From Bacteroidota bacterium (GTDB taxonomy: Bacteria; Bacteroidota; Bacteroidia; Chitinophagales; Chitinophagaceae), in the NCBI GenBank assembly GCA_030706685.1, contig JAUZOA010000018.1, forward strand, positions 1,329 through 65,328: a stretch of 64,000 nt of DNA, written 5' to 3'. The notes below the pieces were generated by a model. That model had not been told where the DNA came from. It did not search any database and was given only the letters and a program-made list of their open reading frames with translations. The position numbers were made by a program, and so were the translations under genes. Of this stretch, positions 3,866-48,887 are shown one piece after another. How positions within the stretch are numbered: the stretch's first letter is position 1; the number at the start of each line of letters is the position of its first letter.

Positions 3866-3870
3866 AGAAG

Positions 3871-3962: not shown

Positions 3963-3965
3963 TTC

Positions 3966-6395: not shown

Positions 6396-6402
6396 AGAAG
6401 AG

Positions 6403-6505
6403 AGCTATTCGCTATTAGCCTTTAGCTGTTAGCTATTGGCTATTAGCCATGAATAATATTTTAACAAACGCCCGCAACTAATAGCTAAAAGCTAATAGCT
6501 AATGG
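6403..6505. repeat. palindromic GCTATTAGC/GCTAATAGC-word intergenic element (longer copy)
   Basis: The left arm GCTATTAGCCTTTAGCTGTTAGCT pairs imperfectly with the right arm AACTAATAGCTAAAAGCTAATAGC. It shares two identical 26-nt blocks with 3871-3962. Confidence 0.8.
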
Positions 6506-6509
6506 CTTC

Positions 6510-8870: not shown

Positions 8871-8879
8871 ATATACTAG

Positions 8880-8932
8880 CTTTTTGTTATTAGCCACCGG
8901 CTATTAGCTAATCGCTAAAGGCTAACGGCCTC
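8880..8932. repeat. degenerate member of the ATTAGC-word intergenic element
   Basis: TTATTAGCCACCGGCTATTAGCTAATCGCTAAAGGCTAACGG. It contains the 10-nt palindrome ATTAGCTAAT (8903-8912). Confidence 0.55.
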
Positions 8933-8935
8933 CCT

Positions 8936-11359: not shown

Positions 11360-11379
11360 GGTCTTGGTTTTATCTGATT

Positions 11380-30758: not shown

Positions 30759-30795
30759 GCCGGCGTTGAAACGCCGGCAGGTAAATCTTTTTGAC
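30759..30795 (+). terminator. GC-rich stem-loop followed by a T-run (terminator or attenuator-like) 20 nt upstream of the barrel gene
   Basis: GCCGGCGT (30759-30766) pairs with ACGCCGGC (30771-30778) around a TGAA loop. TCTTTTT follows about 8 nt later. Confidence 0.35.
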
Positions 30796-30815: not shown

Positions 30816-33377
30816 TTGAAACCAATCCTGCTACTATTGCTATCCCCTTCTTTTGTATCGGCGCAGGTGATAAGATCTGTAGAGCCTGTGGAAACAAAAG
30901 ATTATATCAACATGATCCGCCGGCATGGCGACACTGCAAATAATAACAACGTATCGCCGGCGGACTCGATCAATAGTGTACGCAATGCCAACCTCACCCT
31001 GCGCGGCATTTTCAATCCTGCTATCGCTATCAAGAGAATAAATATCAATAACGGGAATATCAAAATCTACAGTAATTATTCAAGACGCCTGGTGCTCAGC
31101 GGCAGTTATAGTTCTGTCGCCAGTATCAAAACAACTAACCGGCTTCCCGGCTTACAAAATAATTTTGTACAAGGTGGCCCTGCAAATGGAGAATTGCGCT
31201 GGCTTGGCCCTGAAACAGGAGAAATGTTCAGCTTTGGGCCTGACATTCATGCCCTGGAATTTGATGGCAGTTCGTACCCCTATGATCAGAATGGTAAATT
31301 AGTGGCAACAGGTTCCGGCAACGGGAACCCGGCTCAAATTTATCATAGCAATATTTTCAGAACAGCGGCATCGCTCTCCCAGTCATTGAATATCCAAAGC
31401 ACGCTTTACCGCGCGGCTAAAAATACCTGGACCTTTAATGTTAAACTGGGACAAACAGGTGAACATATATACATCAGGGATAATAAAAACTCCTCCAAAA
31501 CTATTTCGGCTTCCATCGGAACAGTGTCCAAATCGCTTAGCCTTTCAGGAAACTATAGCTATTCCCGTGACAAATTCTCCAACTCTAACCGGAATGGGTT
31601 TTTAAACCGCGTATACCAGAACTCGTTGCTCACCCCGATCAGTTTTTCCGCTACCCAGGGGAATACACTTACCGGCAATATTCAAAGAAGCTATAGCCAC
31701 CTCGCGGACAACCCCTTCTTTCTATTGGATAATAACGGTAACTCCTTTTTACAGTCACAGCATCATGGAAACGTGGTATTGGAAGAAAAAACAAATAGCC
31801 TGAAATTCAAAGTAATTCAGTCTCTTGAAAGCGTACAACAAAAAAGTATTGAGCAATACAAAGAAGGAACAGCTTATTTTCCCGGCGGGATCGCCACGGG
31901 AAGAAAGAAAAATGATCTTTCTTATTTATTAACAGCCAGCGCCTGGGGAGACATTAACTATTCAAATTACAGGTATCACTCTACTTTATCTGTTAATTAT
32001 ATTTTTACGGGTACCCGGTCAGCTATCTGTTATTCCATTAATAGTCAAACCTATAGTTACCAAAGGTCTTCCAATGATGTAAACTTCAGTTATCTCACGC
32101 TTTACAGGGGACATAATATAGAAGCAGGGATTGATCTTACTAATAAATTTTATTATTCCAATACATCCGGTAAAGGCAGTTACTTCTTGCCTGCCGTCAA
32201 TTCATATGCCCGGTTGAATAATATCTTCGACTACTTTGATATCAAGCTGAATACAGCTGTCAATCATTTCAAAAGTGAATTACCGGTTGACAAGTCCTTT
32301 GCGCATATCAATTTATTGCGATACTCTACGCAGGATGCGTTTCAATATTTCCCGCTCGGGGAAGTGACGGGTTTTGATAATCTTAAAGTGATTGATCATT
32401 TTGAATGGACGGGGAAATTAGAATTGTGGTATAAGAACAATATTTCTCTCAGCGGGGAAGTGTTTATAAGAAATACCCGCCATGATGTCTTTCCTGTTTA
32501 TAAAAACGGAGACTGGGTACTTAAAAATATAGCTGATCACCGTAAAAAGGGTATTGAATTGCAGCTAAGCTCTTACCGGCTTCCTTTTTCTCCGAAGAAA
32601 TTCTCTGTCAGTAATACGCTCTCATTTACCTCCTATCAAAACAGGGTAACAAAAGTGGGAGACGGTTACAATTTCACTCCCATTGCAGGGTTCAGCAATA
32701 TTAATAAAGTTATAGCGGCGGGCGAGCCACTGGGAGCCATAGCAGGAAGCAGTTATGTCCGGGATGCATCAAATAATATCCTCATCGGGAATGATGGGTA
32801 CCCGCTTGTCAATAATCAACCAAAAATAATCGGCGATCCTACTCCTGATTTTATCATGAAGCTGAGTAATAGCATGAACTGGAAAAAATTCACGTTGTGC
32901 CTGGATATGGAATGGAAAAAAGGGGGAGATGTCTGGAATGGTACACAGGCGGCATTGGATTATTACGGAAGATCACAGACCTCGGCGATGCTGCGGAATA
33001 CGACGAATTATATTTTCCCGGGCTATTTACAGGATGGTCATATCAATAATATCCCGGTCAATTTTTATGACCCGGCTTTACCGCTTGATAAAAATCGCTG
33101 GGTGAGATACGGTCTTAGCGGTATCGCGGAAGAATATATTCAAAAGGGGGATAACATCAGGCTAAACACCTTATCCCTCGGATACAAATTGAATTTCAGG
33201 AAATATATACAGCAACTGACGGTTGGGATATACCTGGATAATATTATCCTTTGGACAGCTTATAAGGGCGCAGACCCGAACCAACTACTATATGACCAAC
33301 CGAATGGTTCGGGGCTCGACTTTTTCAATCTTCCTTCCACTAAAACATTTGGCTTTACCACCTCCATTCAATTTTGA
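30816..33377 (+). CDS. SusC/RagA-like outer-membrane beta-barrel lacking a recognisable CarboxypepD_reg + plug N-terminal module
   Basis: 853 aa with a TTG start and signal peptide MKPILLLLLSPSFVSAQ. The body and C-terminus (TKTFGFTTSIQF) parallel the barrel part of the SusC at 43937-47185. I find none of the plug signatures in the first ~100 residues. Confidence 0.75.
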   Translation: MKPILLLLLSPSFVSAQVIRSVEPVETKDYINMIRRHGDTANNNNVSPADSINSVRNANLTLRGIFNPAIAIKRININNGNIKIYSNYSRRLVLSGSYSSVASIKTTNRLPGLQNNFVQGGPANGELRWLGPETGEMFSFGPDIHALEFDGSSYPYDQNGKLVATGSGNGNPAQIYHSNIFRTAASLSQSLNIQSTLYRAAKNTWTFNVKLGQTGEHIYIRDNKNSSKTISASIGTVSKSLSLSGNYSYSRDKFSNSNRNGFLNRVYQNSLLTPISFSATQGNTLTGNIQRSYSHLADNPFFLLDNNGNSFLQSQHHGNVVLEEKTNSLKFKVIQSLESVQQKSIEQYKEGTAYFPGGIATGRKKNDLSYLLTASAWGDINYSNYRYHSTLSVNYIFTGTRSAICYSINSQTYSYQRSSNDVNFSYLTLYRGHNIEAGIDLTNKFYYSNTSGKGSYFLPAVNSYARLNNIFDYFDIKLNTAVNHFKSELPVDKSFAHINLLRYSTQDAFQYFPLGEVTGFDNLKVIDHFEWTGKLELWYKNNISLSGEVFIRNTRHDVFPVYKNGDWVLKNIADHRKKGIELQLSSYRLPFSPKKFSVSNTLSFTSYQNRVTKVGDGYNFTPIAGFSNINKVIAAGEPLGAIAGSSYVRDASNNILIGNDGYPLVNNQPKIIGDPTPDFIMKLSNSMNWKKFTLCLDMEWKKGGDVWNGTQAALDYYGRSQTSAMLRNTTNYIFPGYLQDGHINNIPVNFYDPALPLDKNRWVRYGLSGIAEEYIQKGDNIRLNTLSLGYKLNFRKYIQQLTVGIYLDNIILWTAYKGADPNQLLYDQPNGSGLDFFNLPSTKTFGFTTSIQF

Positions 33378-33381
33378 AATC

Positions 33382-36300
33382 ATGAAACTACCAGTAAAAC
33401 ATTTTGTATTCTTATTGCTGATAGCAGGATCAGTCAATAGAGTTTTTGCGCAAGTGCCGGACTATTCTTCGTCAAAGGAAAAGGTCTATATTCAAACCAA
33501 TCATGTATTCTTTAAGCCCGGCGACCAGGTCTTTTTCAAACTTTACCTCGTAAATGGGCAGGACCAAACGCCTTCCGGACAGAGCAGCGTGGTGTATGTA
33601 GAAGTCATCAACCCTTCGGGCAATGTGCTTCAAAAACTGAATTACCGGGTTGACAACGGGTATACGGAGGGTTCATTTGATTTTAATGAAGAAGCCCCCG
33701 GCGGGATTTACAAACTCCGGGCCTATACTACCTGGATGCAAAACGAAAAAGACAGCAGCTTCTTTGTAAAAGAAATTACTTTACAAAAAGTCATCGCGCC
33801 AAGAGTGCTGATGAAACTCGACTTCCCGAAAAAAGGCTATGGTGCCGGCGACGAAGTGACAGCTGATTATTCTATACGTAATCTCAGCGACCAGCCTATC
33901 CGGTATTATGAAGTAAAATATACCGTTTCCGTTGGCGGAACCACTATCCATACCAATAGCTTTAAAACGAACAATGAAGGTAAGGCGCAGGTGAAATTCA
34001 GGCTTCCCGCCGACCTGAAGAGCAGTGATGGATTGCTGAACATCACGATAGAATATGATTCTTATACAGAAGCCATTTCAAGAAGCATCCCGATTGTTCT
34101 TAATAAAATCGATCTCCAGTTCATGCCCGAAGGAGGAACCCTCGTTAACGGCATTGCCACCAACATTGCATTCAAAGCACTGAATGAAAACGGGAAACCG
34201 GCCGATATAAAAGGAGAAATATGGGATAATGAGGATAACAAGATCATGTCTTTTGAAAGTTATCATTTTGGAATGGGGAAATTTTCCTTCACGCCGCAAA
34301 AAGGGAAAACATATATTGCAAAAATCACTTCCCCTGCTTCTATCCAGGAAAAATTCAAATTGCCGGTAGCGTCGAATAATGGCATTGTGATGAATATGTC
34401 GGAGAACGACAACAAATTATTGGTCAAATTAAGCTCGACCGAAGACAGGTATATAGAATTAGCCGGGCAAACTAAAAACGTTATTTACCATTCTCAAAGG
34501 TTGTTCCTGAAAAAAGGGGAGCAGGTCACTGAAATAGATGAAAGAAAATTTCCTGCAGGCATCGCGCAGTTTACTATTTACAATGAAGATGAGTTGCCCA
34601 TAGCAGAAAGACTGGTATTCTTAAATGAGAATAAAGTATTACAGGTAAAGATCACTACCGATAAAGACAGGTATTTGCCAAGAGAGAAGGTCACGATGAC
34701 GCTTCAAACACTGGATGAAAAAGGCGACCCTGTTCCTTCAAATTTTTCTGTAGCAGTAGTAGATGACAAACTTTGGTCTTTCGCGGATGATAAACAGGAT
34801 CATATTCTTTCCTGGCTGCTGATGAGCTCTGAATTGAGAGGAAAAATTGAAGAACCACAATTCTATTTTAAAAAAGATGAGCCTAAAGCAGTGCCCGCGC
34901 TGGACCTTGTTATGCTGACTCACGGTTACCGGTATTTTGATTATATCGAATATGTTCAAAAAGAGGGGAAATTGAAATTTACACCGGACCAGCCAAATAT
35001 TTTAAGCGGTGTAGTTCTTAATGACAAACAACAACCCGTGAAAGCAAGCGTATTCCTGGTAAATCCCAATACCGGCGAAAAAGCATTGAATATAAAAACC
35101 GGTTCGGATGGCATATTTTTCTTCTCCGACCTGGCACCAAGGACGAACTACTATTTGATCGCTCAGTCCCTGAAGGAAAAAGAAAAAGTGACCATTAAAG
35201 TTTTGCAAAACGGCATAGGGTATAACCCTTTAAAAGCAAAACAACTTGCTCCACTTGCTTCAAAATTTGGCGCCCGTACAGGCTTAGGCCTGGTCAATCC
35301 CGTTAAAAAAGAAGAAGCGGAAAAAGTAAATCTAAAAATAATAGTTGATAAAAAAGAGGAAGGGCGGATGAATGAAACTCACCTGGATGAAGTAGTCATA
35401 GTTGGCTATGGCGCAGCAAAAAGAAAGGATTTAACCGCTGCGGTAGCCGTTGTAAGAAATGAGGCGTTGCCGGCAGCCAATAATCTTGGTTTTCTGCTGG
35501 AGGGCAAAGTCGCTGGCCTTGATATAGAGCAACAGGCTAATCCTGCGGCAGGAGCCGTATTTAAAATCAGGGGAGCGGCTGCATTAGCCGGCGGTAATGA
35601 GCCATTGTATGTTGTGAATGGAATACCTGTCGAAAAATTCGAATGGAATTTCAACCCGAATGATATTGAATCCATCACTATTTTGAAAGATGCGTCCGCC
35701 ACGGCGATCTATGGGGCAAGAGCTGTCAACGGCGTGATTGCCATTGAGTCGAAAAAATTCAGGAATCAAAAGATCAGGCTGGACCTGACAAAAAAATATT
35801 ACTATATCACGCAAATGATCCAGGCAGGCGGTTCTGTATACTCGGTAGCAAAAAGATTTTATGCACCAAGGTACCATTCAACGGAAACATCCGAAAGAAA
35901 TGATTTCAGGGAAACCATTTACTGGAACCCGGTAGTGCAAACCGATAAGAATGGAAAAGCATCTGTTGAATTCTATAATTCCGATGCCTCTACTACTTTC
36001 AGGGCTATCGCGGAAGGAATTGCGTATAATGGAAAAATCGGGAGAGCCGAAGCCACTTATACCACAAGGAATGCGATAACTGTCGATGCGAAGATCCCTC
36101 CTTATCTTACCGTAGGAGACAAAGCATTGATCCCATTGGTGATTAAGAATAATACTGAACAAAACGCAGATGCAACGATCAGTTTACATCTTCCCGGGAA
36201 TATTAAAACCGGTGATTATGATAACAAAATCATCTTAACGGCAGGCGAATCCAGGCAAGTGCTGATCCCGGCAGAAGCAACCGCCGCGGCTAAGGGATCC

Positions 36301-37908
36301 ATCCAGTTCATGGTAAAAAGTCAATTCAATACAGAAACGATTTCTCTGCCTGTTGTTGCCAGTGATAAGGGCTTCCCGGTAATCGAAACCTTTTCAGGAA
36401 ATAAGTCCGCCAGGCATAATTTCACCATTAATAAAATGATACCCGGAACCCTGCAATCGCATCTTAAGGTATTTCAAAATTTAGAAGGCCAGCTATTGGA
36501 TGGAATTGAATCGATGTTAAGAGAACCGGGCGGATGCTTCGAACAAACATCCTCTACTACTTATCCGAATATATATGTATTAAAATATTTACGTGAAGCC
36601 GGAAAATCCAATCCTGCTATTGAGAAAAAGGCTTTATCCTATATCGAAAACGGTTACAACAGATTGATCGGTTTCGAAACGGCTCAAAATGGTTTTGAAT
36701 GGTTTGGGCATACGCCGGCGCATGAGGCTTTGACCGCTTATGGATTGCTCGAGTTCACCGATATGCAGGAATTCATTGATGTAGATAAAAAAATGATGGA
36801 AAGAACAAAGACGTTCCTGATGAGCCGGAGAGACGGCAAAGGTTCGTTTTCCCTGGCATCTGGCGGATATGACAGGTTTGCTTCTGTCCCCGACAAGATC
36901 GCAAACATTTATATAGTATATGCTTTAACGCAAGCGGGAATCGGTAACGAGATACAGCAAGAGTACCGGGCAGCAGTAAATAAAGCCATCGACAGCAATG
37001 ACGCTTACCAGTTAGCTATGATGGCGCTGGCAGCCAGTAATATGAAAAATGAAAATGATTACGCCCGGTTGATGGAACTGCTGAATACTAACTATCAAAC
37101 GTTGAAATTGTCGGCGGAAACCAGTGTCGTCAATTCAAGAGACGCTTCACTGCGGGTGGAATCCATGTCGCTGTATACGTTGGCGCTGGCAAGAGAAAAG
37201 TCCCCGAGGATCGGCTTGATGGCAGAACTTGTTTCTAAAATACTGGGAGAAAAATCTTATTACGGGTATGGTTCAACACAGGCGACTGTGCTCGCGTTAC
37301 ATGCCATTGTTGAGTACTCCAAACTAATTGGAACTTTAGCACCGGATTCGCAGGTAGCTTTTACCCTGAATGACCAGGCAATCACTCCCGGTACCAGCCC
37401 CCTGATCAATCTCAGGAACGGGGAGAATTCATTTGATATTCATTACGAAAATGCGAACAAAACCATTCCTTACAATCTTGAAGTTTCTTACAATACGCTA
37501 ACGCCACCTAACAGCGCGAAGGCGGAACTGAAATTATCTACCCGGCTGAAAGATATTCAGACGAAAGTGGGAGAAACGGTAAGAATGGAAATTGAAGTGA
37601 AGAATGAAAGATCTGCACTTCAGCCTATGGCGATTGCAAAGATTGGAGTACCCGCTGGTTTGGCTGTACAGCCCTGGCAGTTGAAAGAAATAATGGAAAA
37701 GAATGAAGTGGCTTATTACGAAATTTTTGATAATTACCTTGTATTGTATTGGATGGGATTTGCTCCAAATGAGATCAAAAAGGTCAACCTGGATCTGAAA
37801 GCGGAAATAGCCGGCACTTATAAAGGAAAAGCCAGCAATACCTGTTTATATTATACACCTGAATACAAAAACTGGAATGATGGTGTGGAAATAGAAGTAA
37901 AACCATAG
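33382..37908 (+). CDS. alpha-2-macroglobulin-like thioester protein with an internal SusC-type CarboxypepD_reg + TonB-receptor plug module
   Basis: The ATG at 33382 gives signal peptide [24 protein letters not shown] (track start 33223 overlaps the previous gene). It has MG2-like N-terminal repeats and a CarboxypepD_reg-like segment (nt ~35002-35215). A plug-like segment lies at nt ~35383-35760 ([12 protein letters not shown] ... [35 protein letters not shown]). The thioester region [21 protein letters not shown] places Cys codon 1052 at nt 36535-36537. The C-terminus is A2M receptor-domain-like. Confidence 0.8.
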   Translation: [1508 protein letters not shown]

Positions 37909-37955: not shown

Positions 37956-39407
37956 TCAAGGCTTGCCGGGTGTAAATGAAAATGCCAAAGCCGGATAAAA
38001 AGAACCAGTCTTTAACAACGATTGAGGAAGGGATACTTTAACAACGCCATTATCATTTACCCATTTTACCGTTTCCCCATTCTGCAACAACGTCATCTTC
38101 GTTCCCTTCGCCGGGATATTGTTTTTCCATTCTATCGCAGATGGCAGCGCTTCATTATCATCCAGGCATACAAGCGCATACATTAACGTTCCCGTTTTAT
38201 TTTTAGTAAAAAATGTTTTGCCATCCTGGTATTGAGGAGTAGTGCGTGTATTATAAATGGCTTCGCCGTTTATTTTCATCCATTTTCCAATTTCTTCCAA
38301 TCGCTGAATAGCTTCTGCCTCCAGGGTTCCATCTGCCCGCGGGCCTACACCCAGCAACAGGCTCCCACCCTTTGCCACAATTTCTATTAAAGAATGAATC
38401 ACTTTTGTTGCAGACTTGAAATGTTCGTTTGGAACCCATCCCCAGGCATTGCCCAATGTCATACAGCTTTCCCATGGATGATCGAGTTGACGATCCGGGA
38501 TTCTTTGCTCGGGTGTCTGGTAGTCTTCATAAAGCCCATGCACCGTGCGATCAACGATCAGCAATCCGGGTTGCGCTTTTCGCGCCATCGTGGCGATAGC
38601 GGGTATATCAATATCCTGGCTCCAGGCGGGAATAGCAGCGCCCCATGATCGCACTTCTTCGTTGACCGTTTTCAAAGGCCTTACCCATCCCCCGTCCAGC
38701 CACAAAATATCAACCGAACCATAATTATGCATCAGTTCACCAATTTGGTTATAGGTATATTTTTTATACTGGCTCCATCGCCAGGAATATTTGCGGATAT
38801 CATAGTTGTTATTACGATCTGCGGTGGCATATTTGGGCCACCAGTAATATTCAGAATGCCAGTCGGGTTTGGAAAAATAAGCGCCGATCATAAAATCATT
38901 TTTCCGGAAAGCATCGAATACATATTTCGCTACATCGGCCCTTGGATTATTTTTAAAAGGCCCGGCTGATATTTTAAAACCCGTTTCTTTCGTATCAAAC
39001 ATACAGAACCCGTCATGGTGTTTGGTGGTAAATACAACATACCGCATACCGGCATCCTTTGCTGCATTGGCCCATTGTTCAGGATTAAAATTGACGGGGT
39101 TAAAATCTTTGGCAAGACCCCAGTACCATTTTTTATAATCATCATAAGCGATAGTACTGTCCCGTTCTATCCAATCCTCAGAACAAATAGACCACGATTC
39201 AACGATTCCCGGTACGGCATAGATGCCCCAGTGTATGATCATACCGAACTTGAGATCCTGCCATTTATCTAATTTTGCTTTTACCAATGGGTCTGTGGGC
39301 CATTCATATCCTGAGGATGAAGGTGTATTTTGTTGCGCTTTAAGGCAAACAGCAGCAAGTGTTAAAAAAGAAAATAAGAAAGCTTTGTAGGCTAATTTCA
39401 AAATCAT
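37956..39407 (-). CDS. alpha-L-fucosidase (GH29)
   Basis: 483 aa with a signal peptide and the GH29-type motif YVVFTTKHHDGFCMFDTK. The overall length is typical. Confidence 0.85.
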   Translation of the reverse strand: MILKLAYKAFLFSFLTLAAVCLKAQQNTPSSSGYEWPTDPLVKAKLDKWQDLKFGMIIHWGIYAVPGIVESWSICSEDWIERDSTIAYDDYKKWYWGLAKDFNPVNFNPEQWANAAKDAGMRYVVFTTKHHDGFCMFDTKETGFKISAGPFKNNPRADVAKYVFDAFRKNDFMIGAYFSKPDWHSEYYWWPKYATADRNNNYDIRKYSWRWSQYKKYTYNQIGELMHNYGSVDILWLDGGWVRPLKTVNEEVRSWGAAIPAWSQDIDIPAIATMARKAQPGLLIVDRTVHGLYEDYQTPEQRIPDRQLDHPWESCMTLGNAWGWVPNEHFKSATKVIHSLIEIVAKGGSLLLGVGPRADGTLEAEAIQRLEEIGKWMKINGEAIYNTRTTPQYQDGKTFFTKNKTGTLMYALVCLDDNEALPSAIEWKNNIPAKGTKMTLLQNGETVKWVNDNGVVKVSLPQSLLKTGSFYPALAFSFTPGKP

Positions 39408-39481
39408 ACTACTAAGAATTTTTGTTTCGGCTAACTTCTTTGTTATTTGCCAACCTTATACAACCAGCCTATTAACTGTGA

Positions 39482-41938
39482 TTAATCGTTTTGAATAAAA
39501 TCATTCCCCGATAATTGCCAGTCATTATCATAAAAGCCCGTCATCTTTACTTCATTGGCTCCTGATTGAAGCATATTTAATTTATAGATCATAAAGTCCG
39601 GGAAGCCGCTTGCTCCCGCAAAATATTGATTGGCTGTAGCTGCATTCATCCCTTTTATACCCGTTCCGCTGATCACGCCCACGGAAGCTATGGAAGAATT
39701 GCGAAGCGGCCATACAAAATAGGCCGCGAAATCATCTCCTTCCCAGGTTTTGCCGCCAGCGGTAATTTTATTACGCTCTACCTGTATCGGGCAATCATTT
39801 AGTACCGTTTTCCAGGCCGCATTCGTATTGCTATTGCCATAAACGATCACACCCCTGTCCTTATATTTTTCCAAGGAAAACTCTTTATCGGGGATGATAT
39901 CCACCGCCCCGTTGCCACGATAATACCATGTTTCAGCATCATACCTGGCTTTATTAAAACTCCATTCATTTTCTTCCTTTGTGCCGGTAGTGCCATATAC
40001 AAAAATCATATCGTGATTAAAAGCATCCTTAAACGTTCCATAACGATCAGGACCTTTCGCATAAGCACCCGGTACCGAAGTTACTTCCCATTTATTATTA
40101 TTCCGGGTAAGAAATAAGCTATCCGTTGAACTGGTTACTTTATATTCTACCGGCGCCGATCCATCAAGAGTAATTTTTACCAGGTCGCCGGCATTAAAAT
40201 CCCTGAGATCTAATTTCAATATGCGGGCGTTTTCTGTATTTCCGCTGATTGTTTTGGCTGCCTTATTTCTTTTTAGTTGTACCCGGCTGAATTGCAGCGG
40301 ATGTAGCTGTTGCCGGATAGCTGCCCAGCGAAAGGAAGAGGATATGCCCGGGTTAGCTGTTATGAAATCAATTGTATTCACGGCGCTGTCAACTGCCAGG
40401 CTATGCCATTTAAAGAAATCGAAGATGGGTTTCCAGTCAACGCTCTGGTCACCGAACCAATGTTCTCCATTCGGGTATTCATAATAACTGAGATCGCTGT
40501 GAAAATCGCCCAGCAATTTCCGCATTTGCCTTGCATAATTGACAGAAACAACTTTGTCGGCTTCCCCATGAAGAATATAAACACCGATAGGCTTATAATT
40601 AGATACCAGTTTGATAACATCGCTCTGGTTACCCGAGCGAAGCAATAATTGTTCTAACGGCGAGCTGCTGCTGTCGGGGATCAAGCCATCGGCGGAGCCA
40701 TAGCCTTTTAATGTAGGATAACCGGAACAGGCAGCGATCGCCGCCCACTTGTCAGGGTAAGTAGCGCCAAGAAACCATGTTCCATGGCCACCCATCGAAT
40801 GACCGGTCAGGTAAATATGTTGCGGATCGGGTTTGAATTTTTCTTTCGCGATAGCCAGCACTTCAAGAGCATCCAATCTTCCCCAGTCTTCCCAGTTAAA
40901 GCCCCGGGGCCGGCGGTTAGTCGCTGCCACCAATGTACCCCAGTCTTTTGAATGATAAGCCCTGGCTTGTCCTATTGCTTCCACGCCGGCCCCATGTACA
41001 GATAAAAACAAAGCCGCGCCTGTATTGAACGAAGGCGCTTGTGGTGTTACCGCATAATATTGAAGACTGCTGTCAATAGTGCTGATAAAAGTGTTGCTGT
41101 ATTTATCCGTCGGGTCTACCGCGTCTATCGCTATCTTTTTTTCATCTACGATTGTCGTTTTATCCAGTAGTGTTATCGTGCACTCATATTGTCCTTTTTT
41201 TGTGGCAGCCGTCCCGTCAAAATGGAAAATTATCTTGCGGGAAGACATAGCAGGCACGGAAGGAATATCAGTAGTCATTTCTTTGCCGCCGATATTGCTT
41301 TTGATATGCCATCCTTTTATCGTTTTTCCGGACGAGTTGATCAATACCACAGCGCCCATCAGGTCATTATTGGGATGGCCGGGCACTATAAACGGCAATG
41401 TCGGATCTCCTGTATCCAGGAATACGGGTTTATCGGGAAAAATAAGATCGGCGATAATGTTTTGCCCCCTTACATAGATTTCGTTCACCCCTTTCTTCAA
41501 CTTTACAGGAATAGATAACCACCCGGATGCATAAGCATCACCTGCATGTGGCTCCCCATTAAAAATAATGGCGCTGTTACCTTTTATATTGAGCAGGGCA
41601 GGCTGTTCTTTATTGGAAGAATAAGTAAGATAAATATATCCGCCCCCATCGCGGAATCCACCTCTGCCTCTCAGGCGGTTCAGGCTATCGCCGGTCACCG
41701 ATTGCCATTTAATGAGCTGCCCGTTGCGGCTTACGCCAAAGGAGTCGCCTTCGGCAGGCCGTTTCATCGTATTTGTATATAGTTTGTAAGCCAGTTGATC
41801 CGTATACAGGGCTTCGCGCCCATACCGGCTTACAGAATTGATCATCAATCCTTGCGTAAAATGATAAACGTTTTGTGAAAAAGAAAAAACATGGATCAAA
41901 AGTGAAAAGATCAAAAGCCCGGAATTTCGCTTTCTCAT
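39482..41938 (-). CDS. multidomain secreted alpha/beta hydrolase (esterase / S9-like serine hydrolase core flanked by beta-rich domains)
   Basis: I prefer the ATG at complement 41936-41938 (MRKRNSGLLIFSLLIHVFSFSQ). It has the nucleophile elbow IYLTGHSMGGHGTW, followed by ILHGEADKVV and PNGEHWF (candidate Asp/His). It sits inside a PUL. Confidence 0.7.
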   Translation of the reverse strand: MRKRNSGLLIFSLLIHVFSFSQNVYHFTQGLMINSVSRYGREALYTDQLAYKLYTNTMKRPAEGDSFGVSRNGQLIKWQSVTGDSLNRLRGRGGFRDGGGYIYLTYSSNKEQPALLNIKGNSAIIFNGEPHAGDAYASGWLSIPVKLKKGVNEIYVRGQNIIADLIFPDKPVFLDTGDPTLPFIVPGHPNNDLMGAVVLINSSGKTIKGWHIKSNIGGKEMTTDIPSVPAMSSRKIIFHFDGTAATKKGQYECTITLLDKTTIVDEKKIAIDAVDPTDKYSNTFISTIDSSLQYYAVTPQAPSFNTGAALFLSVHGAGVEAIGQARAYHSKDWGTLVAATNRRPRGFNWEDWGRLDALEVLAIAKEKFKPDPQHIYLTGHSMGGHGTWFLGATYPDKWAAIAACSGYPTLKGYGSADGLIPDSSSSPLEQLLLRSGNQSDVIKLVSNYKPIGVYILHGEADKVVSVNYARQMRKLLGDFHSDLSYYEYPNGEHWFGDQSVDWKPIFDFFKWHSLAVDSAVNTIDFITANPGISSSFRWAAIRQQLHPLQFSRVQLKRNKAAKTISGNTENARILKLDLRDFNAGDLVKITLDGSAPVEYKVTSSTDSLFLTRNNNKWEVTSVPGAYAKGPDRYGTFKDAFNHDMIFVYGTTGTKEENEWSFNKARYDAETWYYRGNGAVDIIPDKEFSLEKYKDRGVIVYGNSNTNAAWKTVLNDCPIQVERNKITAGGKTWEGDDFAAYFVWPLRNSSIASVGVISGTGIKGMNAATANQYFAGASGFPDFMIYKLNMLQSGANEVKMTGFYDNDWQLSGNDFIQND

Positions 41939-42001
41939 ATGGATATAATTATAGTTAGAATAACGCGAATTATTTTTTTCGAAAGCTACTGCCAATTAGC
42001 C

Positions 42002-42042
42002 CAAAAAAGACAAATCAGACCGCTAAATAAGCGGCCTGATTT
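42002..42042 (-). terminator. rho-independent terminator-like hairpin after the SusD-like gene
   Basis: On the minus strand, AATCAGGCCGC-loop-GCGGTCTGATT (one mismatch) is followed by TGTCTTTTTT. It lies 36 nt downstream of the stop at 42078. Confidence 0.6.
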
Positions 42043-42077
42043 TGTTTTGTTGGTTGGTCTTGCTATCTGCGAACAAA

Positions 42078-43919
42078 TCATTGGTAATTATAATCATTCC
42101 AATAAGGTAATACATTTCTTTTATCAGCCGGCACCCAGAATATGGGCGTCGTGAAATTGTCCTGTTGCTGTACCTGCAGGTAATTGTCCGGGTTGGTTTG
42201 CTGGGCGGATAAGGGATAACGCAAACGTTCGGGGAAAGGCTTCATTACTTTGGCCGTAAAAGTCATGGGTTCCAGGTAAGGATGCCTGGTTCTTCTCAGT
42301 TCGGCCCACAATTCAAATGGCGCGATAATATTCAGGTGTATATATTTTTGTTGCATCAGTATCTCCATCTTGTCCTCGATATTCGCCCTTGTATTAAAGC
42401 GGGTCACGATTGAATCGGCATACAGGCCTACAATCCCTGCATTAGGTTTGGCCGGGTGCATATACAGGGCTGAATCTTCTCCGAACCTGTTGCTGCTGAA
42501 AGTTACCGGGCCTGTAAAATAATTACCGGCGATAGCTTTTGCCACGAAAGATGAGGCCATCCGGCTTTCTTCGTTTCTTGCATACCAGAAATCCGTGGAA
42601 TGAATGATCGCGTCTTTAATATGCTGACCGGCCGTTTTGCCGGTATTGCCAAGCGCTTTTAGCTCCACTTCAGCCAGGAGCAGATCCACTTCGGCCAAAG
42701 ACATCATGTAAGCAGGGAACTTGGAATCATGCGTATAAGTAGTAAGGTGATACTGTGATTTGGAGTTTTGCTGCAGCGATAAGATAAAACTATTGGGAGT
42801 AGTCGTATACCTGTCACCCGCAACATACCCGGGCTTTTGAGCATCGGCATTATACGTAACCCCGATGTATTTACGCAGGTTGGTAGTAGCGCTGTAAGCG
42901 CCATCGAAAAACTTCGTAGGCATGGCTATTACCGGCAACCTGGGATCATCTATGCCGGGCTGGTAGTGGGCCGAATCCCGGTTCATCCGTCTCATTATTA
43001 TATCCGGGATAAAACTTGCGAATGAATTCTCACCAAGACCTCTTATCCAGAAACCATTACTTTCAGGAGCTTCCTCGGCAAAGACAGGTTGCAAAAGATC
43101 CTGGGCAGGAAAGGGCTTGGTAAGCACATCCTGTAATTCTCCTTTGGCCAGCGTTTCATCAACCCCTGAAATTCTTACAGCATATTTTAGCCGCAATGCA
43201 TTGATGAATTGAAGCCATTTATCGACGTTGCCTACAAAGGCGATATCATATTTTGCAAAAAGTTGTTTGCCCAGGTCTGTCATGGCATTGTATACCGTGG
43301 GCAGGTCCTGGCTTATTTGTTTCAAATCACTCATCACGGAAACATATATCGACTTGGGGTCATCGAATTTCGGATAGAATATTTTATCACTTCCTTTAAA
43401 AGCTTCGGAATAAGGAATGCTGTTATAAAAATCCACGTTGACCAATGCCATATAATCTTTAATGACTGTCGCCAGCGTATAAAAAATCTTATTATTAGTA
43501 AGTGCCTCTCCGCTGATTTTACTGAGTTCATCATTCAATACAGCCCAGTATCTTGATCTTGTATAAAAGTCATTCAATCTCCCATTCCACAGGGTATTGG
43601 TATTACCCCCAAAAGCATTTACCCCGCTCAGGTCATCGAAATTATAAAACCAGGGATAGCGGTCAGTAATATAACGCTGGGCGAGCTGCGCATAACCCGG
43701 AACTTCTGTACCCGCATTCAGCTGCCAGTAGAATTCCCCGTAATCCTGGATAAATACTTTATGTTCGGTGAGCATGGAAAGAAAAATGCCGCCAAAGAGG
43801 TTTTCCGTTTTTGAATACACTTCGGGATTCCTGAATTGATCTTCCAGTTGCTTTTTGCAACTGACCAATGAGCTTAGCATAAAAAGAACAAACAGGTATT
43901 TTATTATATGCCGTTTCAT
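42078..43919 (-). CDS. SusD/RagB family nutrient-binding outer-membrane lipoprotein
   Basis: 613 aa with lipobox LSSLVSC. It lies immediately downstream (17 nt) of a SusC-type gene. Composition is SusD-like (aromatic-rich, ends WNDYNYQ). Confidence 0.85.
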   Translation of the reverse strand: MKRHIIKYLFVLFMLSSLVSCKKQLEDQFRNPEVYSKTENLFGGIFLSMLTEHKVFIQDYGEFYWQLNAGTEVPGYAQLAQRYITDRYPWFYNFDDLSGVNAFGGNTNTLWNGRLNDFYTRSRYWAVLNDELSKISGEALTNNKIFYTLATVIKDYMALVNVDFYNSIPYSEAFKGSDKIFYPKFDDPKSIYVSVMSDLKQISQDLPTVYNAMTDLGKQLFAKYDIAFVGNVDKWLQFINALRLKYAVRISGVDETLAKGELQDVLTKPFPAQDLLQPVFAEEAPESNGFWIRGLGENSFASFIPDIIMRRMNRDSAHYQPGIDDPRLPVIAMPTKFFDGAYSATTNLRKYIGVTYNADAQKPGYVAGDRYTTTPNSFILSLQQNSKSQYHLTTYTHDSKFPAYMMSLAEVDLLLAEVELKALGNTGKTAGQHIKDAIIHSTDFWYARNEESRMASSFVAKAIAGNYFTGPVTFSSNRFGEDSALYMHPAKPNAGIVGLYADSIVTRFNTRANIEDKMEILMQQKYIHLNIIAPFELWAELRRTRHPYLEPMTFTAKVMKPFPERLRYPLSAQQTNPDNYLQVQQQDNFTTPIFWVPADKRNVLPYWNDYNYQ

Positions 43920-43936
43920 AGCAAAGATTTTTAAAA

Positions 43937-46900
43937 TTAAAAACTAATGTTTATGCCAAAACTGAATGTCCGGGTAGTCGGGTAAAAAGAATCTTCCACA
44001 AAACCCTGCGAGCTGAGCGTTGATTCAGGGTCTATATTGGGAATCGTCTTATGCAGGTAACCCAGGTTCCGCGCCGCAAGATTGACCGATACTTTTTGCA
44101 GCTTCAGCATTCCGGATATCTTTTTGGGAAGCGTATAATCAATGGATATCTCCCTCAGTTTTATATAATCATTTTTGAATACCCTGTCCGGAGGCCAGCT
44201 GGTACTGACATCATTGATATAAGATGAGTAATAGGTAGTAGCAGAGATCATCTTATCGTTAGGATCATATTTGAAATTGCCGCCGCCAAGGTCAACTTTC
44301 TTTACACCGGGAAGAATGACTCCGTCATGATAAGTAATACCACCGGAAGTATAGGTTAACCCGCCATGCGCTTCATCCCGGTAAGGCAGGGTAGCTTTGA
44401 TGACACCATTGCCCATCAGGTATTGATTGGAATAGGAGAAGATGGTGCCGCCGAATTTATAATCAAGGCCAATATGAAAATTAAACCCTTTAAAATAGAA
44501 GTCGCTGTATAATCCGCCGAATGCTTTAGGATTTACATTACCCACTTTTATATATTTTGTATTATCCAGTGAGTACAAGCCGGTACCCTGGTCAACCACT
44601 TTGTTTCCGTTGGGATCGCGAAGGAAATCGTACATATAAATATCACCCAGGGGCTGCCCTACTTTACCCACAACCCTTACAGCATTATTGATCCCGTCAA
44701 TAAGTTGTTCATTGATGCCCTCATATAGCTTCATCACTTTTGACAACTGGCGGGCCGCCGTAAATGTCAGGTTCCAGCGATATTTCGTAGTAACGAAAGG
44801 TGAAGCCTTTACAAATAATTCATATCCCCAGTTTTTTACATTCCCGCTGTTGATATTGGCCGTAGCATAGCCGGTAGCAGGATTAATATTAAGCGGGATG
44901 ATCTGGTTATAAATATTATTAGTATAAAAAGTAAGTTCCAGTTCAAGCCTGTCCTGTCTTAACCACCGGGTATCAAGCCCTATTTCAAATTCCCGTTTCC
45001 TGAATGGTTTGATATCTCCGAGAAACAGGGCAGTGGGCGGCACTACCCCGATGATCGTAGCCCCTTCATAGATAGATTGAACGCTGGAACTATTATCAGC
45101 AAAATACCTGTTTTGCAAAGCTACATTAGGGCCACCCCCCACATCTGCCCATGAGGCGTTTATCTTTCCATAATTCAACTTAGGTATTTTAATATCATTG
45201 GTAAAATGATAAATAACAGAAACGCCGGGATAATAATAAGAGTTGTGGCTCGGCGGCAGCGTCGAATTCCAGTCTTTTCTTGAATCAATCTGCAGGTAAA
45301 TTTTATTTTTCCAGGAAGCGGTTACAGAGCCCAGTATACCATAGATAAGGTCAGATCCTCTTGCTACGCCGCGCACTTTACTCAGGGCGCCCGATGTCAG
45401 CAGATCATTACCGATGGAAAACCAGTCCGGGAAGCGCAAGCCGTCTTCGCCGGTGCCTGCAAAAACATCCGTCTCATTTACCTGCTGGTAAGCCCATCCC
45501 CCATAAGCAAAAATGTGAAGGTTATCATGCATAAACCCCTGTTCATAATTCAATAAGGCCTGGTAGCTCTGCACCATTGTATTTTGTTTTCTCCATTGGA
45601 ACTTGCCTCCTGAAACCTGGGGAAGTAATTGCACGATCTGGTTCTCTGTTGTATAATCGGTATTCGTATAGTCAATAGCCGCCTGGCCTAAAAGAGATAT
45701 TTGTTTCGTAAAATTCAATGTCGTTTTTAGCGAAGTAATCGTGTGGAATTTTTTATCCAGGTCAGTATTCTGATTTTGTTCCCAAAGTAAACCTGTAAAC
45801 CGCGTAGCGGAAGGAGGTAAAGCATAATTATCAAGGATTCTTCTATAACCATTCTCATCCAAATAAAAATTTCTCAGGAAATTGTAGTCATAGTCCCTGT
45901 TTAAACCAAATGCAACAACCTGTTCAAGATTGGGCCTCCTGTTGCGGGTTGTTATACTGTATATATTACTGGTAAATTCAAATTTGGCAAAAGGCGAAAC
46001 ATTAAAATTACCATTGAAACTGAAAGTATTGTTCTTTTGAGTAGACCTGTCAATGATATCCTGGTAATCAACATGTGAAAAAGAGGCACGGGCGCTGCCA
46101 AATGCACCGCCACCTGAAATAGCGACATTCGTACGGTTCGAGCTTCCTGTTTTGAAAAAATCAATAAAATTATTCGGGTAAGCCTGGTAAGGAACCATCA
46201 TACTGTCGTATCGCATCACCTGGCTACCATCGAATTTAGGACCAAAACTGTAACGGGTAGCTCTCAAAGTTCTTACCCGCTGACCGTTTGGCAAAATAGT
46301 CGTTGCCGTATCCCATGCACTGGTACCCGATCCATACTCGTTTTGAAAATCTATAAAAGAAAAAGGTTTTTCAACAGTTACCTGGTGAGATACATTAATA
46401 CCGAGACCTTTTGTTTTTTTACCGCTCTTGGTTGTAATCAATACTACGCCATTTAATGCCTGGCTTCCATATAACACCGTGGCTTTTGCGCCTTTCAATA
46501 TTTCCATGGATTCTATATCCTCCGGATTAATATCATTAATGCCCGATCCATAGTCCAGTGAATTCAGGGGATCATAAGTGGTATTGGCCTGGCTGGTTGC
46601 CTGGTCATAAATCGGCACTCCGTCTACTACAAACAAGGGCCTTGATTTGGCAAATGATTCCAGGCCGGCAGCTCCCCTGATCCGGATATTTATACCTCCT
46701 GTCGGACCTGCTGAACCGATATTGATACCTACGCCTGCGGCTTTTCCATATAAAGCCAGAGCAGGATTTAGCGTGGTTCCTGCTTGTTGCAGTTCAGTAC
46801 CCTTTACAGTAGAAGTAGCATAGCCAATGGATCTCCTGTCTCTTTTTATACCAAGGGCAGTAACGACAACTTCATCCATCGTTCCTTCTTTAACATCCAT

Positions 46901-47185: not shown

Positions 47186-47444
47186 TTCGTTGAGTTTTAG
47201 GTTTAAGAATTTTGTTTGAGATAGCAATACCTGGTACAACCACATGCCGGCATGGTGCCCGGCATGGACAGTTGCATTAATCTTTCTGATGTGAACGGTG
47301 GCTTGAAACCTGATGTTAGATACACGCATGGCCCGGCCTGTACAGCCGCAACTCATGCTTACTTTAGCCTGCCTGTTACTTTGCCTGTCTACGCAGTAGT
47401 TTTAATATATACGGGACGTATATTGTAGCCTCCCTTAACCATTA

Positions 47445-48674: not shown

Positions 48675-48887
48675 ACTATGGATTTCCCAGATATTAAAAT
48701 AAATCGCTATGAAGATAGAAGACTTTTTAAAAAAAAACAAAAAGTTTTTTATTTTTTATAATTAGTCTGGTTACATACACCCTAACCTCCATGCTTTTTC
48801 CAGGAAATGGCGCCGCCTGATTTTTATTGGCTGGTAGTGGTCAAGTTTGAGGACAATGGGCGATGTTTGGAAAAGACGGGGTTTAAT

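Follow-up and report, generated by a model that had tools for sequence, protein, structure and literature searches.

Two genes in tandem lie on the plus strand of the DNA analyzed here, a stretch of 64,000 nucleotides from a Bacteroidota bacterium of the family Chitinophagaceae (the window). According to the list of open reading frames and the sequence, the first gene starts with TTG and encodes a protein of 853 aa, and its TGA stop codon is separated by only four nucleotides (AATC) from the ATG of the second gene, which encodes a product of 1508 aa. Both reading frames and the 4-nt gap had been reported in an earlier note on this DNA and were found at the same coordinates. The two products are identical in sequence and length to the NCBI MAG proteins P0121 and P0001. 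The features of the pair, referred to below as the barrel gene and the A2M-like gene, are listed in Table 1.

Table 1. Features of the barrel gene and the A2M-like gene (positions in the window; residues of the respective protein).
Feature	Position	Strand	Evidence
Plug-less SusC-type barrel gene	30816..33377	+	ORF; AlphaFold2; Foldseek; TIGR04056 (C-terminal part only)
Signal peptide of the barrel protein, residues 1-17, ending ...SAQ	30816..30866	+	MKxLLLLLLLPxxxxAQ kept across 36 homologues
N-terminal motif PVxSxDY (EPVETKDY, residues 23-30)	30882..30905	+	Conserved; Y30 invariant in the homologue alignment
Vestige of the last plug strands (AIKRINI, GNIKIY) and strand beta1 (RRLVLSGSYSSVASIKTT), residues 71-107	31026..31136	+	BLASTP to P0295; DSSP
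Segment of ~76 residues between strands 1 and 2, residues 108-183, NRLPGLQNNFVQGG...	31137..31364	+	Alignment; strand order of the model
Thioester alpha-2-macroglobulin-like gene with SusC N-terminal module	33382..37908	+	ORF; Pfam; NCBIfam; profile alignments
Type I signal peptide, residues 1-23, Q at +1, without lipobox	33382..33450	+	66 orthologues
N-terminal MG domains to the first half of the MG6-like domain, residues 31-520	33472..34941	+	Pfam MG2; weak A2M_BRD; conserved block
CarboxypepD_reg-like (SusC NTE-like) domain, residues 541-625	35002..35256	+	Pfam PF13620
Variable linker, residues 626-663, candidate bait-like segment	35257..35370	+	Low conservation; relaxed selection
TonB box LDEVVIVGYG, residues 668-677	35383..35412	+	Alignment to BT1763; 66 orthologues
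Plug with SusC/RagA signature, residues 681-793	35422..35760	+	Pfam Plug; TIGR04056; TIGR04057; PDB profile matches
Beta1-like strand remnant after the plug (QKIRLDLTKKYYYITQ), residues 796-811	35767..35814	+	Alignment to P0295; family profile
Return to the MG6/MG7-like region (FRETIYWNP and Pfam A2M), residues 842-934	35905..36183	+	Pfam; profile alignment
Thioester domain (TED), residues 1039-1312	36496..37317	+	Pfam TED_complement; profile alignment
Thioester motif GCFEQ, residues 1051-1055	36532..36546	+	Invariant in 66/66 orthologues
C-terminal MG/receptor-binding-like domain, residues 1360-1508	37459..37905	+	Profile alignment to 7s62_A; high conservation

The search of the barrel protein against Pfam gave no family at E ≤ 0.1. 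The NCBIfam model TIGR04056 (SusC/RagA) matched it with profile positions 670-981 only, which correspond to residues 539-853, and the whole-protein score was 83.5 bits versus the curated cut-off of 368. The C-terminal likeness to the SusC encoded elsewhere in the window, which had been described before, was reproduced by hhalign over about 400 residues, including the ends TKTFGFTTSIQF and trtfsfginisf. Meanwhile, the LPGLQNNFVQGG match claimed between the same two proteins was not reproduced; the equivalent motif comes after the plug and beta1 in P0295, a single-chain relative of the barrel. In agreement with the claim that the N-terminus of the barrel protein has neither a CarboxypepD_reg domain nor a plug, no NTE, TonB box, or plug was found in it by Pfam, NCBIfam, or profile comparison, and residues 18-190 used as a profile showed no similarity to the plug profile (probability of 0.1%).

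The barrel protein alone was modeled by AlphaFold2 as a closed barrel of 22 long strands (pLDDT 86.7, pTM 0.80). The Foldseek search of the PDB with this model gave SusC BT2264 as the best match (E 5e-46, TM 0.71); the top 22 matches were all SusC or RagA-type chains, and classical TonB-dependent transporters ranked lower, with a TM of about 0.4. Judging from the model, the first protein is a complete 22-strand SusC-like barrel. Its PVxSxDY region is of low confidence. Residues 80-103 were aligned by BLASTP to residues 885-908 of P0295, which are the end of the P0295 plug and its beta1, and the DSSP strands in this region of the model are 72-78, 81-86, and 90-107. Few stretches of the barrel are as rich in invariant residues as the segment between strands 1 and 2 (P111, Q114, Q119, S139, G141, and P142), which probably forms the first extracellular loop. 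As this segment is also present in the plug-bearing P0295, it is no substitute for a plug.

The A2M-like protein had been claimed to possess an MG2-like N-terminus and a thioester region, and both were recovered: Pfam MG2 matched residues 34-125 (56 bits versus the cut-off of 32.8), TED_complement matched the thioester domain (96.5 bits, E 2e-27), and the GCFEQ motif was found within it. Pfam A2M also matched residues 845-934 (41.5 bits versus the cut-off of 21), A2M_BRD matched weakly at residues 416-462, and the block VVDDKLWSF (residues 459-467) is conserved. In profile alignments, the nearest solved relatives of the TED were human A2M (E 1.6e-28), CD109, and A2ML1. As to the receptor-domain-like C-terminus described before, it was covered only by a profile alignment, in which positions 1021-1494 of the family aligned to residues 924-1425 (of 1441) of the alpha-2-macroglobulin chain 7s62_A; Pfam A2M_recep was not detected in the protein. 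All 66 orthologues carry a type I signal peptide ending in AQ, GQ, or SQ, and a conserved Cys or lipobox at its end is absent from all of them. The A2M-like protein is thus predicted to be secreted and not to be a lipoprotein. A T9SS C-terminal domain or a similar secretion signal was not detected on it by Pfam.

The middle of this protein is occupied by a SusC module, in which a CarboxypepD_reg-like domain, a variable linker, a TonB box, a plug, the SusC signature, and a beta1 remnant follow one another. The presence of a plug inside the A2M-like protein was confirmed, as the segment scored strongly as a SusC plug with a TonB box and not as an MG domain by Pfam, NCBIfam, and PDB profiles. Namely, Pfam Plug matched residues 681-785 with 55 bits (cut-off 23.9, E 1e-14), the SusC signature TIGR04057 matched residues 761-791 with 55.5 bits (cut-off 46.2), and positions 75-219 of TIGR04056 matched with 153 bits versus the whole-protein cut-off of 368. 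Residues 667-802 aligned end to end with the TonB box and plug of the solved SusC BT1763 (E 6e-26), and the family profile matched the SusC plugs of the PDB with E-values down to 5e-41. The proposal of a CarboxypepD_reg-like domain in front of the plug was upheld in part: PF13620 did match residues 541-600, in many orthologues as well according to precomputed matches, but with 27 bits, which is under the curated cut-off.

The TonB box LDEVVIVGYG aligns with VDEVVVTGY of BT1763, in which the TonB box 81-VDEVVV-86 is needed for function (PMC7782687). It is recognizable, with substitutions, across the 66 orthologues, in which the IRG motif, the PL(Y/F)VVDG motif, and the SusC signature are also conserved. 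The linker in front of it contains the least conserved stretch of the whole protein (residues 631-660, mean identity 0.22), and selection on it is relaxed, with an omega of 0.14-1.15 versus ≤0.25 for the folded domains; one pair gave an omega of 3.15, a value with too few synonymous changes to be reliable. The QKIRLDLTKKYYYITQ remnant behind the plug aligns to GHLKVEVS of P0295, and the family profile alignment reaches into the SusC chain 5t3r_D as far as residue 263.

The MG6 insertion site holds the bait region in A2Ms and the anaphylatoxin (ANA) domain in C3. The SusC module is flanked by the MG6-like block VVDDKLW on one side and by the block FRETIYWNP on the other. Behind it, family position 841 aligns to residue 92 of the C3 alpha-chain, just past the ANA domain, and position 858 to residue 956 of ECAM, just past the disordered bait stretch of that protein (residues 923-942; PMC4498604). 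The conserved flanking blocks and these two alignments agree with the earlier placement of the insert at the bait region. The site of the canonical disordered bait is filled by the folded NTE and plug modules, and only the linker is bait-like.

The nearest plug-bearing relatives of the barrel, among the best 150 matches listed in the search of representatives (140 of them new), were single-chain NTE-VIT-VWA-plug-barrel proteins. Such proteins (P0295, P0302, P0304, P0305, and P0336) have a length of 1620-1770 aa and the architecture CarboxypepD_reg-VIT-VWA-Plug-barrel. Residues 80-853 of the barrel align to residues 885-1688 of P0295 with 28% identity over 815 residues, and residues 668-803 of the A2M-like protein align to residues 768-904, the plug being 44% identical. 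The two proteins of the pair overlap on the same ~20 residues of their single-chain relatives, and this shared overlap looks like the footprint of a gene fission.

The co-occurrence of the two genes was examined in one genome per species, which gave 220 stretches with a relative of the barrel, and 80 loci were fetched. In 76 of the 80 loci, a gene with colinear N-terminal, NTE and plug, and C-terminal parts lies downstream of the barrel in the same orientation, at a distance of no more than about 100 nt; three further loci were cut inside the downstream gene and one inside the barrel. The pair was thus shown by 79 of 80 loci, the other one being cut. It occurs in three families, with loci from Chitinophagaceae, Chryseobacterium, and Desertivirga, and in many metagenomes. 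Distant barrels that are 28-34% identical to that of the window still have an A2M-like gene downstream. Four distant plug-less barrels with an identity of 28-33% (P0300, P0338, P0349, and P0377) all have A2M-like genes behind them, and both of these neighbors that are complete carry MG2-Plug-TED. The barrel adjoins an A2M-like gene wherever the locus could be assessed; phylogenomic co-occurrence had been proposed as a test in the earlier note. Both genes are under purifying selection, with an omega of 0.09-0.16 for the barrel and 0.09-0.25 for the plug.

No other neighbor gene was conserved across genera among the 80 loci, and neither a SusD/RagB-like lid gene nor a peptidase gene was conserved beside the pair in the loci compared. 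The sole SusD of the window (42078-43919, minus strand) belongs with the separate canonical SusC, and the genes around the pair encode cytochrome c, DsrE, DUF2891, and a fucosidase. A linkage to pbpC (PBP1c) was found neither in the window nor as a conserved trait of the loci. The cluster of Chryseobacterium also encodes a second plug protein that is not a barrel (Plug-VWA-Por_Secre_tail).

Taken together, these results make it probable that a TonB-dependent outer-membrane complex of the SusC type is split between the two gene products, and they support the previous interpretation of the pair as complementary halves of a transporter. Where examined, nothing was found of what had been named in advance as speaking against that interpretation. 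To our knowledge, the plug of every known TonB-dependent transporter enters from the periplasm, and both of its ends are on the periplasmic side in all solved ones. The plug of the A2M-like protein would enter the partner barrel from the same side, and since both plug ends would emerge there, the entire A2M body would hang in the periplasm under the barrel. It would close the barrel and be tethered by it, and this tether may stand in for the lipid anchor of the bacterial A2Ms of the E. coli type. TonB would bind the conserved TonB box of the A2M-like protein. In the AlphaFold2 run with both parts, the alignment contained no rows for the plug, which therefore stayed unfolded (pLDDT 22-33), and the mirror-tree test of the pair did not single out the plug.

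Our best guess at the function, by analogy, is a TonB-coupled periplasmic protease or protein trap tethered to the outer membrane; trapping is extrapolated from distant A2M relatives, and the match to ECAM has an E-value of only ~1e-7. More speculatively, the complex might be a gated trap. As the folded plug and linker occupy the normal site of the A2M cleavage trigger, the thioester may be activated in concert with plug displacement by TonB or with cleavage of the linker by a protease, and proteins coming through or beside the barrel might then be captured. A stronger version, which we consider rather unlikely, is a force-activated thioester trap, in which TonB powered by the proton motive force pulls on a plug that acts as the A2M bait region. 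Once the gate in the outer membrane opens, the conformational change of the A2M would be set off mechanically and the thioester would become accessible. A protein passing through the barrel, for instance a protease, a bacteriocin, or another effector, would form a covalent bond with it on arrival and be held in the periplasm. TonB energy transduction and the thioester activation of the A2M/complement type are not known to have been linked; a force-activated trap, if true, would join the two, and it would also be the first natural TonB-dependent transporter with a plug given in trans.

Several other explanations have to be weighed against the split complex. A decaying SusC fragment beside a chimeric A2M gene, that is, a functionless lineage-specific rearrangement or an assembly artefact, could be suspected from the TTG start of the barrel gene, its lack of Pfam families, and its vestige of plug strands. 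Its probability is next to nil, as it is effectively ruled out by intact full-length orthologues of both genes in 76 of the 80 loci, in three families and many metagenomes, and by an omega of about 0.1; the signal peptides are conserved and the lengths are identical in the NCBI annotation as well. It also seems rather unlikely that the barrel, like RagAB, takes up peptides or proteins for nutrition, with the periplasmic A2M-like body serving as a cargo receiver or ratchet. The physical architecture would be the same as in our preferred explanation, and the purpose alone would differ. In structure, the barrel is most similar to BT2264 and then to other SusC proteins and the peptide transporter RagA; the conserved TonB box implies energized gating, and the related single-chain barrels hold their protein-binding VIT-VWA modules at the same periplasmic position. 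However, the pair lacks the conserved lid and peptidase genes, and an invariant thioester would be odd in a recycling part of a transport system, given that it can undergo its covalent reaction a single time only.

The functions of the two proteins could be linked in spite of the plug never docking in the barrel, which would be an autonomous channel shut by loops of the barrel itself; the A2M-like protein would then have its NTE, TonB box, and plug only as a TonB-binding or periplasm-spanning handle, or it would dock into other SusC barrels. The barrel does model as closed on its own, its strands 1 and 2 are joined by a long segment that is conserved, and the Plug-VWA-Por_Secre_tail protein indicates that plugs exist outside barrels in the genomes of Chryseobacterium. 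We nevertheless hold this to be improbable: the adjacency is strict over a deep divergence, the contents of the two proteins are exactly complementary, the segment in question also occurs in relatives with a plug of their own, and a 22-strand barrel of a TonB-dependent transporter, when unplugged, would be a very large open pore. Surface display is highly doubtful. Here, the beta1-like strand after the plug would join the barrel wall, or the chain would thread the lumen, so that the N-terminal half stays periplasmic and MG7, CUB, TED, and the C-terminal MG form an anchored adhesin or trap of the thioester type on the cell surface. The QKIRLDLTKKYYYITQ remnant, homologous to the first barrel strand of the relatives, is indeed kept after the plug, and the proteins nearest to the TED (A2M, CD109, and A2ML1) are eukaryotic and extracellular; but a beta1 is already present in the barrel, whose 22 strands are an even number, the solved plugs have both ends in the periplasm, and the A2M-like protein has none of the T9SS-like secretion signals.

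The split complex can be compared with several known systems. With SusC/RagA (BT2264, BT1763, and RagA), it shares the fold of the 22-strand barrel, the terminal aromatic residue (...QF at the C-terminus of the barrel), and the N-terminal order of NTE, TonB box (DEVV(I/V)VGYG), plug, and signature, which is that of the A2M-like protein. In contrast to these single chains, the N-terminal module and the barrel are on two polypeptides here, the module lies in mid-chain of a 1508-aa protein, no gene for a SusD/RagB partner accompanies the pair, and neither protein reaches the cut-off of TIGR04056. The single-chain VIT-VWA-Plug-barrel proteins likewise combine their plug with a large module for protein binding on its periplasmic side, but they are one polypeptide without a thioester domain, and are themselves uncharacterized. 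In these proteins, VIT-VWA is wholly N-terminal to the plug, and a gene split is therefore not needed. As in the transducers FecA, FpvA, and FoxA, a periplasmic domain in front of the TonB box would couple events in the barrel and plug to a periplasmic partner; there, it is an STN domain of ~9 kDa, which was not detected in the pair, whereas here it is a thioester protein of ~150 kDa on both sides of the plug.

E. coli ECAM/YfhM and Salmonella SaA2M have the same multi-MG architecture, TED, and CxEQ motif, and the predicted periplasmic location and the logic of a membrane-tethered protease trap may also be shared. The likeness is weak (E 1e-7 to 4e-8), weaker than that to eukaryotic A2M and CD109. 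Unlike the ECAM/YfhM type, the A2M-like protein has no lipobox or inner-membrane anchor and no conserved pbpC neighbor, and it carries a folded SusC module of ~320 residues in place of the bait region. The closest solved relatives of the TED are A2M, A2ML1, CD109, TEP1, and C3 (E 1e-28 to 1e-17). In these eukaryotic thioester proteins, a functional insert likewise sits at the MG6 site (bait in A2M, ANA in C3). Theirs is a protease-sensitive loop or an anaphylatoxin, however, whereas the insert here is the plug of a membrane transporter together with a TonB box, and the predicted setting is the bacterial periplasm or outer membrane.

In the literature searched, no description of a split barrel with a plug-bearing A2M was found; we conclude that this arrangement is real, widespread, and uncharacterized. 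In Chryseobacterium, a gene for an ECF sigma factor lies directly upstream of the pair.

The two open reading frames named in the earlier note, one for a SusC-type barrel and one for an alpha-2-macroglobulin (A2M)-like protein, were present as described and are separated by 4 nt (TGA-AATC-ATG). Both products have identical counterparts on an NCBI Bacteroidota MAG contig, where the annotations are generic: "hypothetical protein" for the barrel and "TonB-dependent receptor plug domain-containing protein" for the A2M-like protein. No Pfam or NCBIfam family is dedicated to either protein. The G+C content across the region is unremarkable and the flanking genes are unrelated to it, encoding cytochrome c, DsrE and DUF2891 proteins upstream and, on the opposite strand downstream, a fucosidase/esterase/SusD/SusC/ROK cluster.

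Features of the barrel gene and the A2M-like gene (nucleotide positions refer to the window, residues to the A2M-like protein)
Feature	Position	Strand	Remark
Barrel ORF	30816-33377	+	TTG start, 853 aa
PVxSxDY motif	30882-30905	+	directly after the barrel signal peptide; Y30 invariant
A2M-like ORF	33382-37908	+	1508 aa, co-directional with the barrel ORF
MG2	residues 34-125		Pfam
A2M_BRD	residues 416-462		Pfam, weak
CarboxypepD_reg	residues 541-600		Pfam, under the curated cut-off
Plug	residues 681-785		Pfam
SusC signature	residues 761-791		NCBIfam, exceeds the cut-off
A2M	residues 845-934		Pfam
Thioester domain (TED)	residues 1039-1312		Pfam

The SusC-type plug claimed inside the thioester protein was recognised by Pfam Plug, by the SusC signature and by an alignment to the solved SusC protein BT1763. 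In this alignment, residues 667–802 of the A2M-like protein are colinear with the TonB box and plug of BT1763 (5t3r_D residues 105–241), and LDEVVIVGYG is paired with VDEVVVTGY. Both the TonB box and the CarboxypepD_reg-like N-terminal domain (NTE) are functionally required in BT1763 (PMC7782687). Among 66 orthologues of the A2M-like protein, the thioester motif GCFEQ is invariant; the TonB box, the IRG and PL(Y/F)VVDG motifs and the SusC signature are conserved, and the most variable part is the linker immediately before the TonB box. All orthologues have a type I signal peptide without a lipobox. The TED is nearest to those of human A2M, CD109 and A2ML1, while the E. coli protein ECAM (YfhM) and its Salmonella counterpart SaA2M are much remoter.

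The SusC module (residues ~521–840) is flanked by a conserved VVDDKLW... block and by FRETIYWNP. In C3, the alpha chain begins with the anaphylatoxin (ANA) domain of ~77 residues. The disordered bait stretch of ECAM is Arg923–Leu942 (PMC4498604). After the insert, the family-profile alignments resume at position 956 of ECAM, 974 of SaA2M and 92 of the C3 alpha chain, and by these positions the module occupies the bait/ANA hot spot in the sixth macroglobulin (MG) domain, MG6, which agrees with the bait-region location proposed earlier.

The barrel matched no Pfam family, and the NCBIfam SusC/RagA model covers only its C-terminal third. A profile built from 36 homologues aligned with 97% probability to the C-terminal ~460 residues of the SusC encoded in the window and found zero matches in a sequence search of the PDB. 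The AlphaFold2 model based on the same 36-homologue alignment (pLDDT 86.7, pTM 0.80) is disordered at residues 1–58, and 22 transmembrane strands were counted from its strand/turn pattern. Foldseek comparison of the model with the PDB returned SusC BT2264 (E 5e-46, TM 0.71), further SusC proteins, RagA and ButC; classical TonB-dependent transporters scored far lower. The members of the barrel family share a signal peptide ending in AQ, followed by the PVxSxDY motif. This motif, whose surroundings are otherwise variable and predicted to be disordered, could serve to dock the partner protein or a periplasmic factor.

The association of the two genes in other genomes, raised as a check in the earlier note, held at the loci compared. 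With the barrel alignment as a query against one genome per species, 220 matching stretches were obtained (a single barrel sequence as a query found nothing), and the best 80 were taken further; these belong to Chitinophagaceae (including Chitinophaga, Niastella, Ferruginibacter, Paraflavitalea and Puia), Chryseobacterium and Desertivirga. As seen by tblastn, 76 of these best 80 of 220 loci have the barrel followed within ~100 nt by a same-strand A2M-like gene whose N-terminal part, NTE and plug segment and C-terminal part are colinear; three of the other four end within the downstream gene and one within the barrel. No other neighbour is conserved across the genera of these 80 loci. Four distant plug-less barrels (28–33% identical) whose contigs were inspected are also followed by an A2M-like gene in 4/4 cases, and the two complete downstream genes have the order MG2-Plug-(A2M)-TED.

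Several variations were seen at individual loci. A subset of the barrel orthologues retains an N-terminal NTE, yet has neither a TonB box nor a plug (database proteins P0151, P0157, P0164, P0167, P0221 and P0239; locus L078, 9524–12292; P0300, at locus L081, 8001–10925). Since the partner also carries an NTE, the complex in those species would contain two such domains. In Chryseobacterium sp. HR92 (L078, 6612–9458; NZ_CP139139), the pair has a same-strand gene for an ECF sigma factor (172 aa) directly upstream, as is also the case at ~30 other Chryseobacterium loci. After the sigma factor, L078 encodes a 771-aa protein having a transmembrane segment, a SusC-type plug (IEEVVVMGY), a VWA domain and a T9SS Por_Secre_tail; it is the second non-barrel plug carrier of this apparent operon, and the window has no equivalent. 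At one distant locus (L081, 15745–18925) the pair adjoins rodA/ftsW-like and PBP2-like transpeptidase genes, which recalls the proteobacterial linkage of A2M to a penicillin-binding protein, although it was seen once and may be a coincidence.

Two other readings of the barrel were weighed against the split transporter. According to one, its N-terminus conceals a plug remnant. A faint trace of the last plug strands does appear there, solely as an extension of the BLASTP alignment to P0295, a plug-bearing relative. The profile–profile comparison by hhalign was negative (probability 0.1%), and Pfam and NCBIfam likewise show no plug, as had been claimed. Nor does the conserved stretch from strand 1 to strand 2 substitute for the plug, since it is common to the barrel and the plug-bearing relatives. 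According to the other, the barrel is a decaying SusC fragment, the outcome that the earlier note had considered for a pair not conserved elsewhere and a barrel gene not expressed. This reading is ruled out by the conservation of the pair and by dN/dS-type estimates (omega) of ~0.1. In ten orthologue pairs analysed by the Nei–Gojobori method, where dS was saturated in the remoter pairs and the closer Chryseobacterium pairs were reliable, omega was 0.09–0.16 for the barrel, 0.09–0.25 for the plug, 0.04–0.11 for the N-terminal MG domains and 0.06–0.17 for the TED. The values for linker residues 626–663 were 0.14–1.15; one additional linker value of 3.15 is unreliable because of too few synonymous changes. 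Judged by these sequence comparisons, both genes are evidently functional rather than decaying fragments. Between the closely related Chryseobacterium loci L054 and L057, dS of the plug segment was 0.52, ~5 times that of the rest of the A2M-like gene and the barrel (~0.10–0.14), which suggests recombination or gene conversion limited to the plug.

The exact complementarity of the two proteins, the strict linkage of their genes, purifying selection on both, the conserved TonB box and thioester motif and the type I signal peptides make a split transporter with a periplasmic A2M plug donor moderately probable; any one specific physiological role is much less so. When AlphaFold2 was given the fused window chain together with 42 exact barrel sequences, the barrel was modelled excellently and the plug came out unfolded (pLDDT 22–33), a result without bearing on docking. 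In the mirror-tree analysis, the partial r of the barrel was 0.44 with the plug, 0.51 with the NTE and 0.79 with the N-terminal MG part, the plug not being singled out.

By analogy with the architecture established for TonB-dependent transporters, the plug would fill the barrel from its periplasmic side, and both plug ends would lie in the periplasm; the A2M body would accordingly be located there too, tethered to the outer membrane, and TonB would bind the TonB box of the A2M-like protein. The A2Ms of the ECAM type are activated upon untethering of the bait (PMC4498604). Speculatively, a plug at the bait site could couple gate opening, or linker cleavage, to thioester exposure, and the complex would then trap incoming proteases or other proteins in a gated manner.

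In the full-text literature searched, no macroglobulin carrying a plug domain is described, nor any SusC that is plug-less or split by nature; to our knowledge, every TonB-dependent transporter described so far is a single chain whose plug is tethered to its barrel. If the split architecture is true, this natural and widespread system, with plug and barrel on different proteins, would lend itself directly to studies of plug insertion, plug extraction and barrel biogenesis, and it would show that the plug can act as a portable module for outer-membrane docking. It would also mean that the bait/ANA insertion site accepts an entire membrane-transporter domain, raising the testable idea that mechanical force, not proteolysis, can trigger a thioester protein. 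The module is present in Chitinophaga, Niastella, Ferruginibacter and Chryseobacterium, which are abundant soil and rhizosphere Bacteroidota. Given this occurrence and the adjacency of the ECF sigma factor in Chryseobacterium, the module may serve as a so far unrecognised system of envelope defence or protein capture.

The origin of the pair was approached through plug-bearing relatives. An exhaustive HMMER search with a fused plug and barrel query gave 487 representative clusters at E < 1e-30; among the best 150 of them there were 140 new proteins, 6 with a full-length plug and two further ones with short fragmentary plug matches only. Five of the six are single-chain CarboxypepD_reg-VIT-VWA-Plug-barrel proteins of 1620–1770 aa (P0295, P0302, P0304, P0305 and P0336; metagenomic; locus L083, 121–5187), and the sixth is a plug and barrel protein of 1175 aa. 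Among the proteins inspected, no plug-bearing relatives are closer to the plug-less barrel than these VIT-VWA proteins, which represent an uncharacterised class of TonB-dependent transporters with a large VIT-VWA module ahead of the plug. Residues 80–853 of the barrel align with 885–1688 of P0295 (E 2e-81) and residues 668–803 of the A2M-like protein with 768–904 (44% identity, E 8e-29), so that the two window proteins overlap on the same ~20 residues of P0295, namely the last plug strand and beta1. The barrel retains the vestige GNIKIYSN...RRLVLSGSY and the A2M-like protein the beta1-like remnant QKIRLDLTKKY. Such an overlap would be expected if a SusC-like gene had been duplicated or split and its 5' module captured in the bait site of an A2M.

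The surroundings of the pair gave some further observations. No Rfam family reached the gathering score in the entire window, and the sole match upstream of the barrel at a permissive threshold (mir-84, E 0.27) is at chance level, as was the output of the sigma-70 promoter and terminator scan; PADLOC found no defence system. A perfect 7-bp G+C hairpin (GCCGGCG-TTGAAA-CGCCGGC, 30759–30778) lies 38 nt before the barrel start codon with a T5 run ~10 nt 3' of it; uncalled by the terminator scan and without an Rfam match, it could either terminate the upstream unit or have a regulatory role. The cluster converging on the A2M-like gene (37956–48740, minus strand) is of the canonical polysaccharide-utilisation type, with an alpha-L-fucosidase, an esterase/S9-like hydrolase, SusD, a full SusC (NTE, plug and barrel) and a ROK-family protein. 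It contains the sole other SusC-type plug of the window; a classical TonB-dependent transporter at 57567–60059 likewise matches Pfam Plug. Five tandem paralogues of ~808 aa on the minus strand (1439–13809) encode MacB-like FtsX permeases (MacB_PCD and FtsX), and a sixth such gene lies at 53026–55587.
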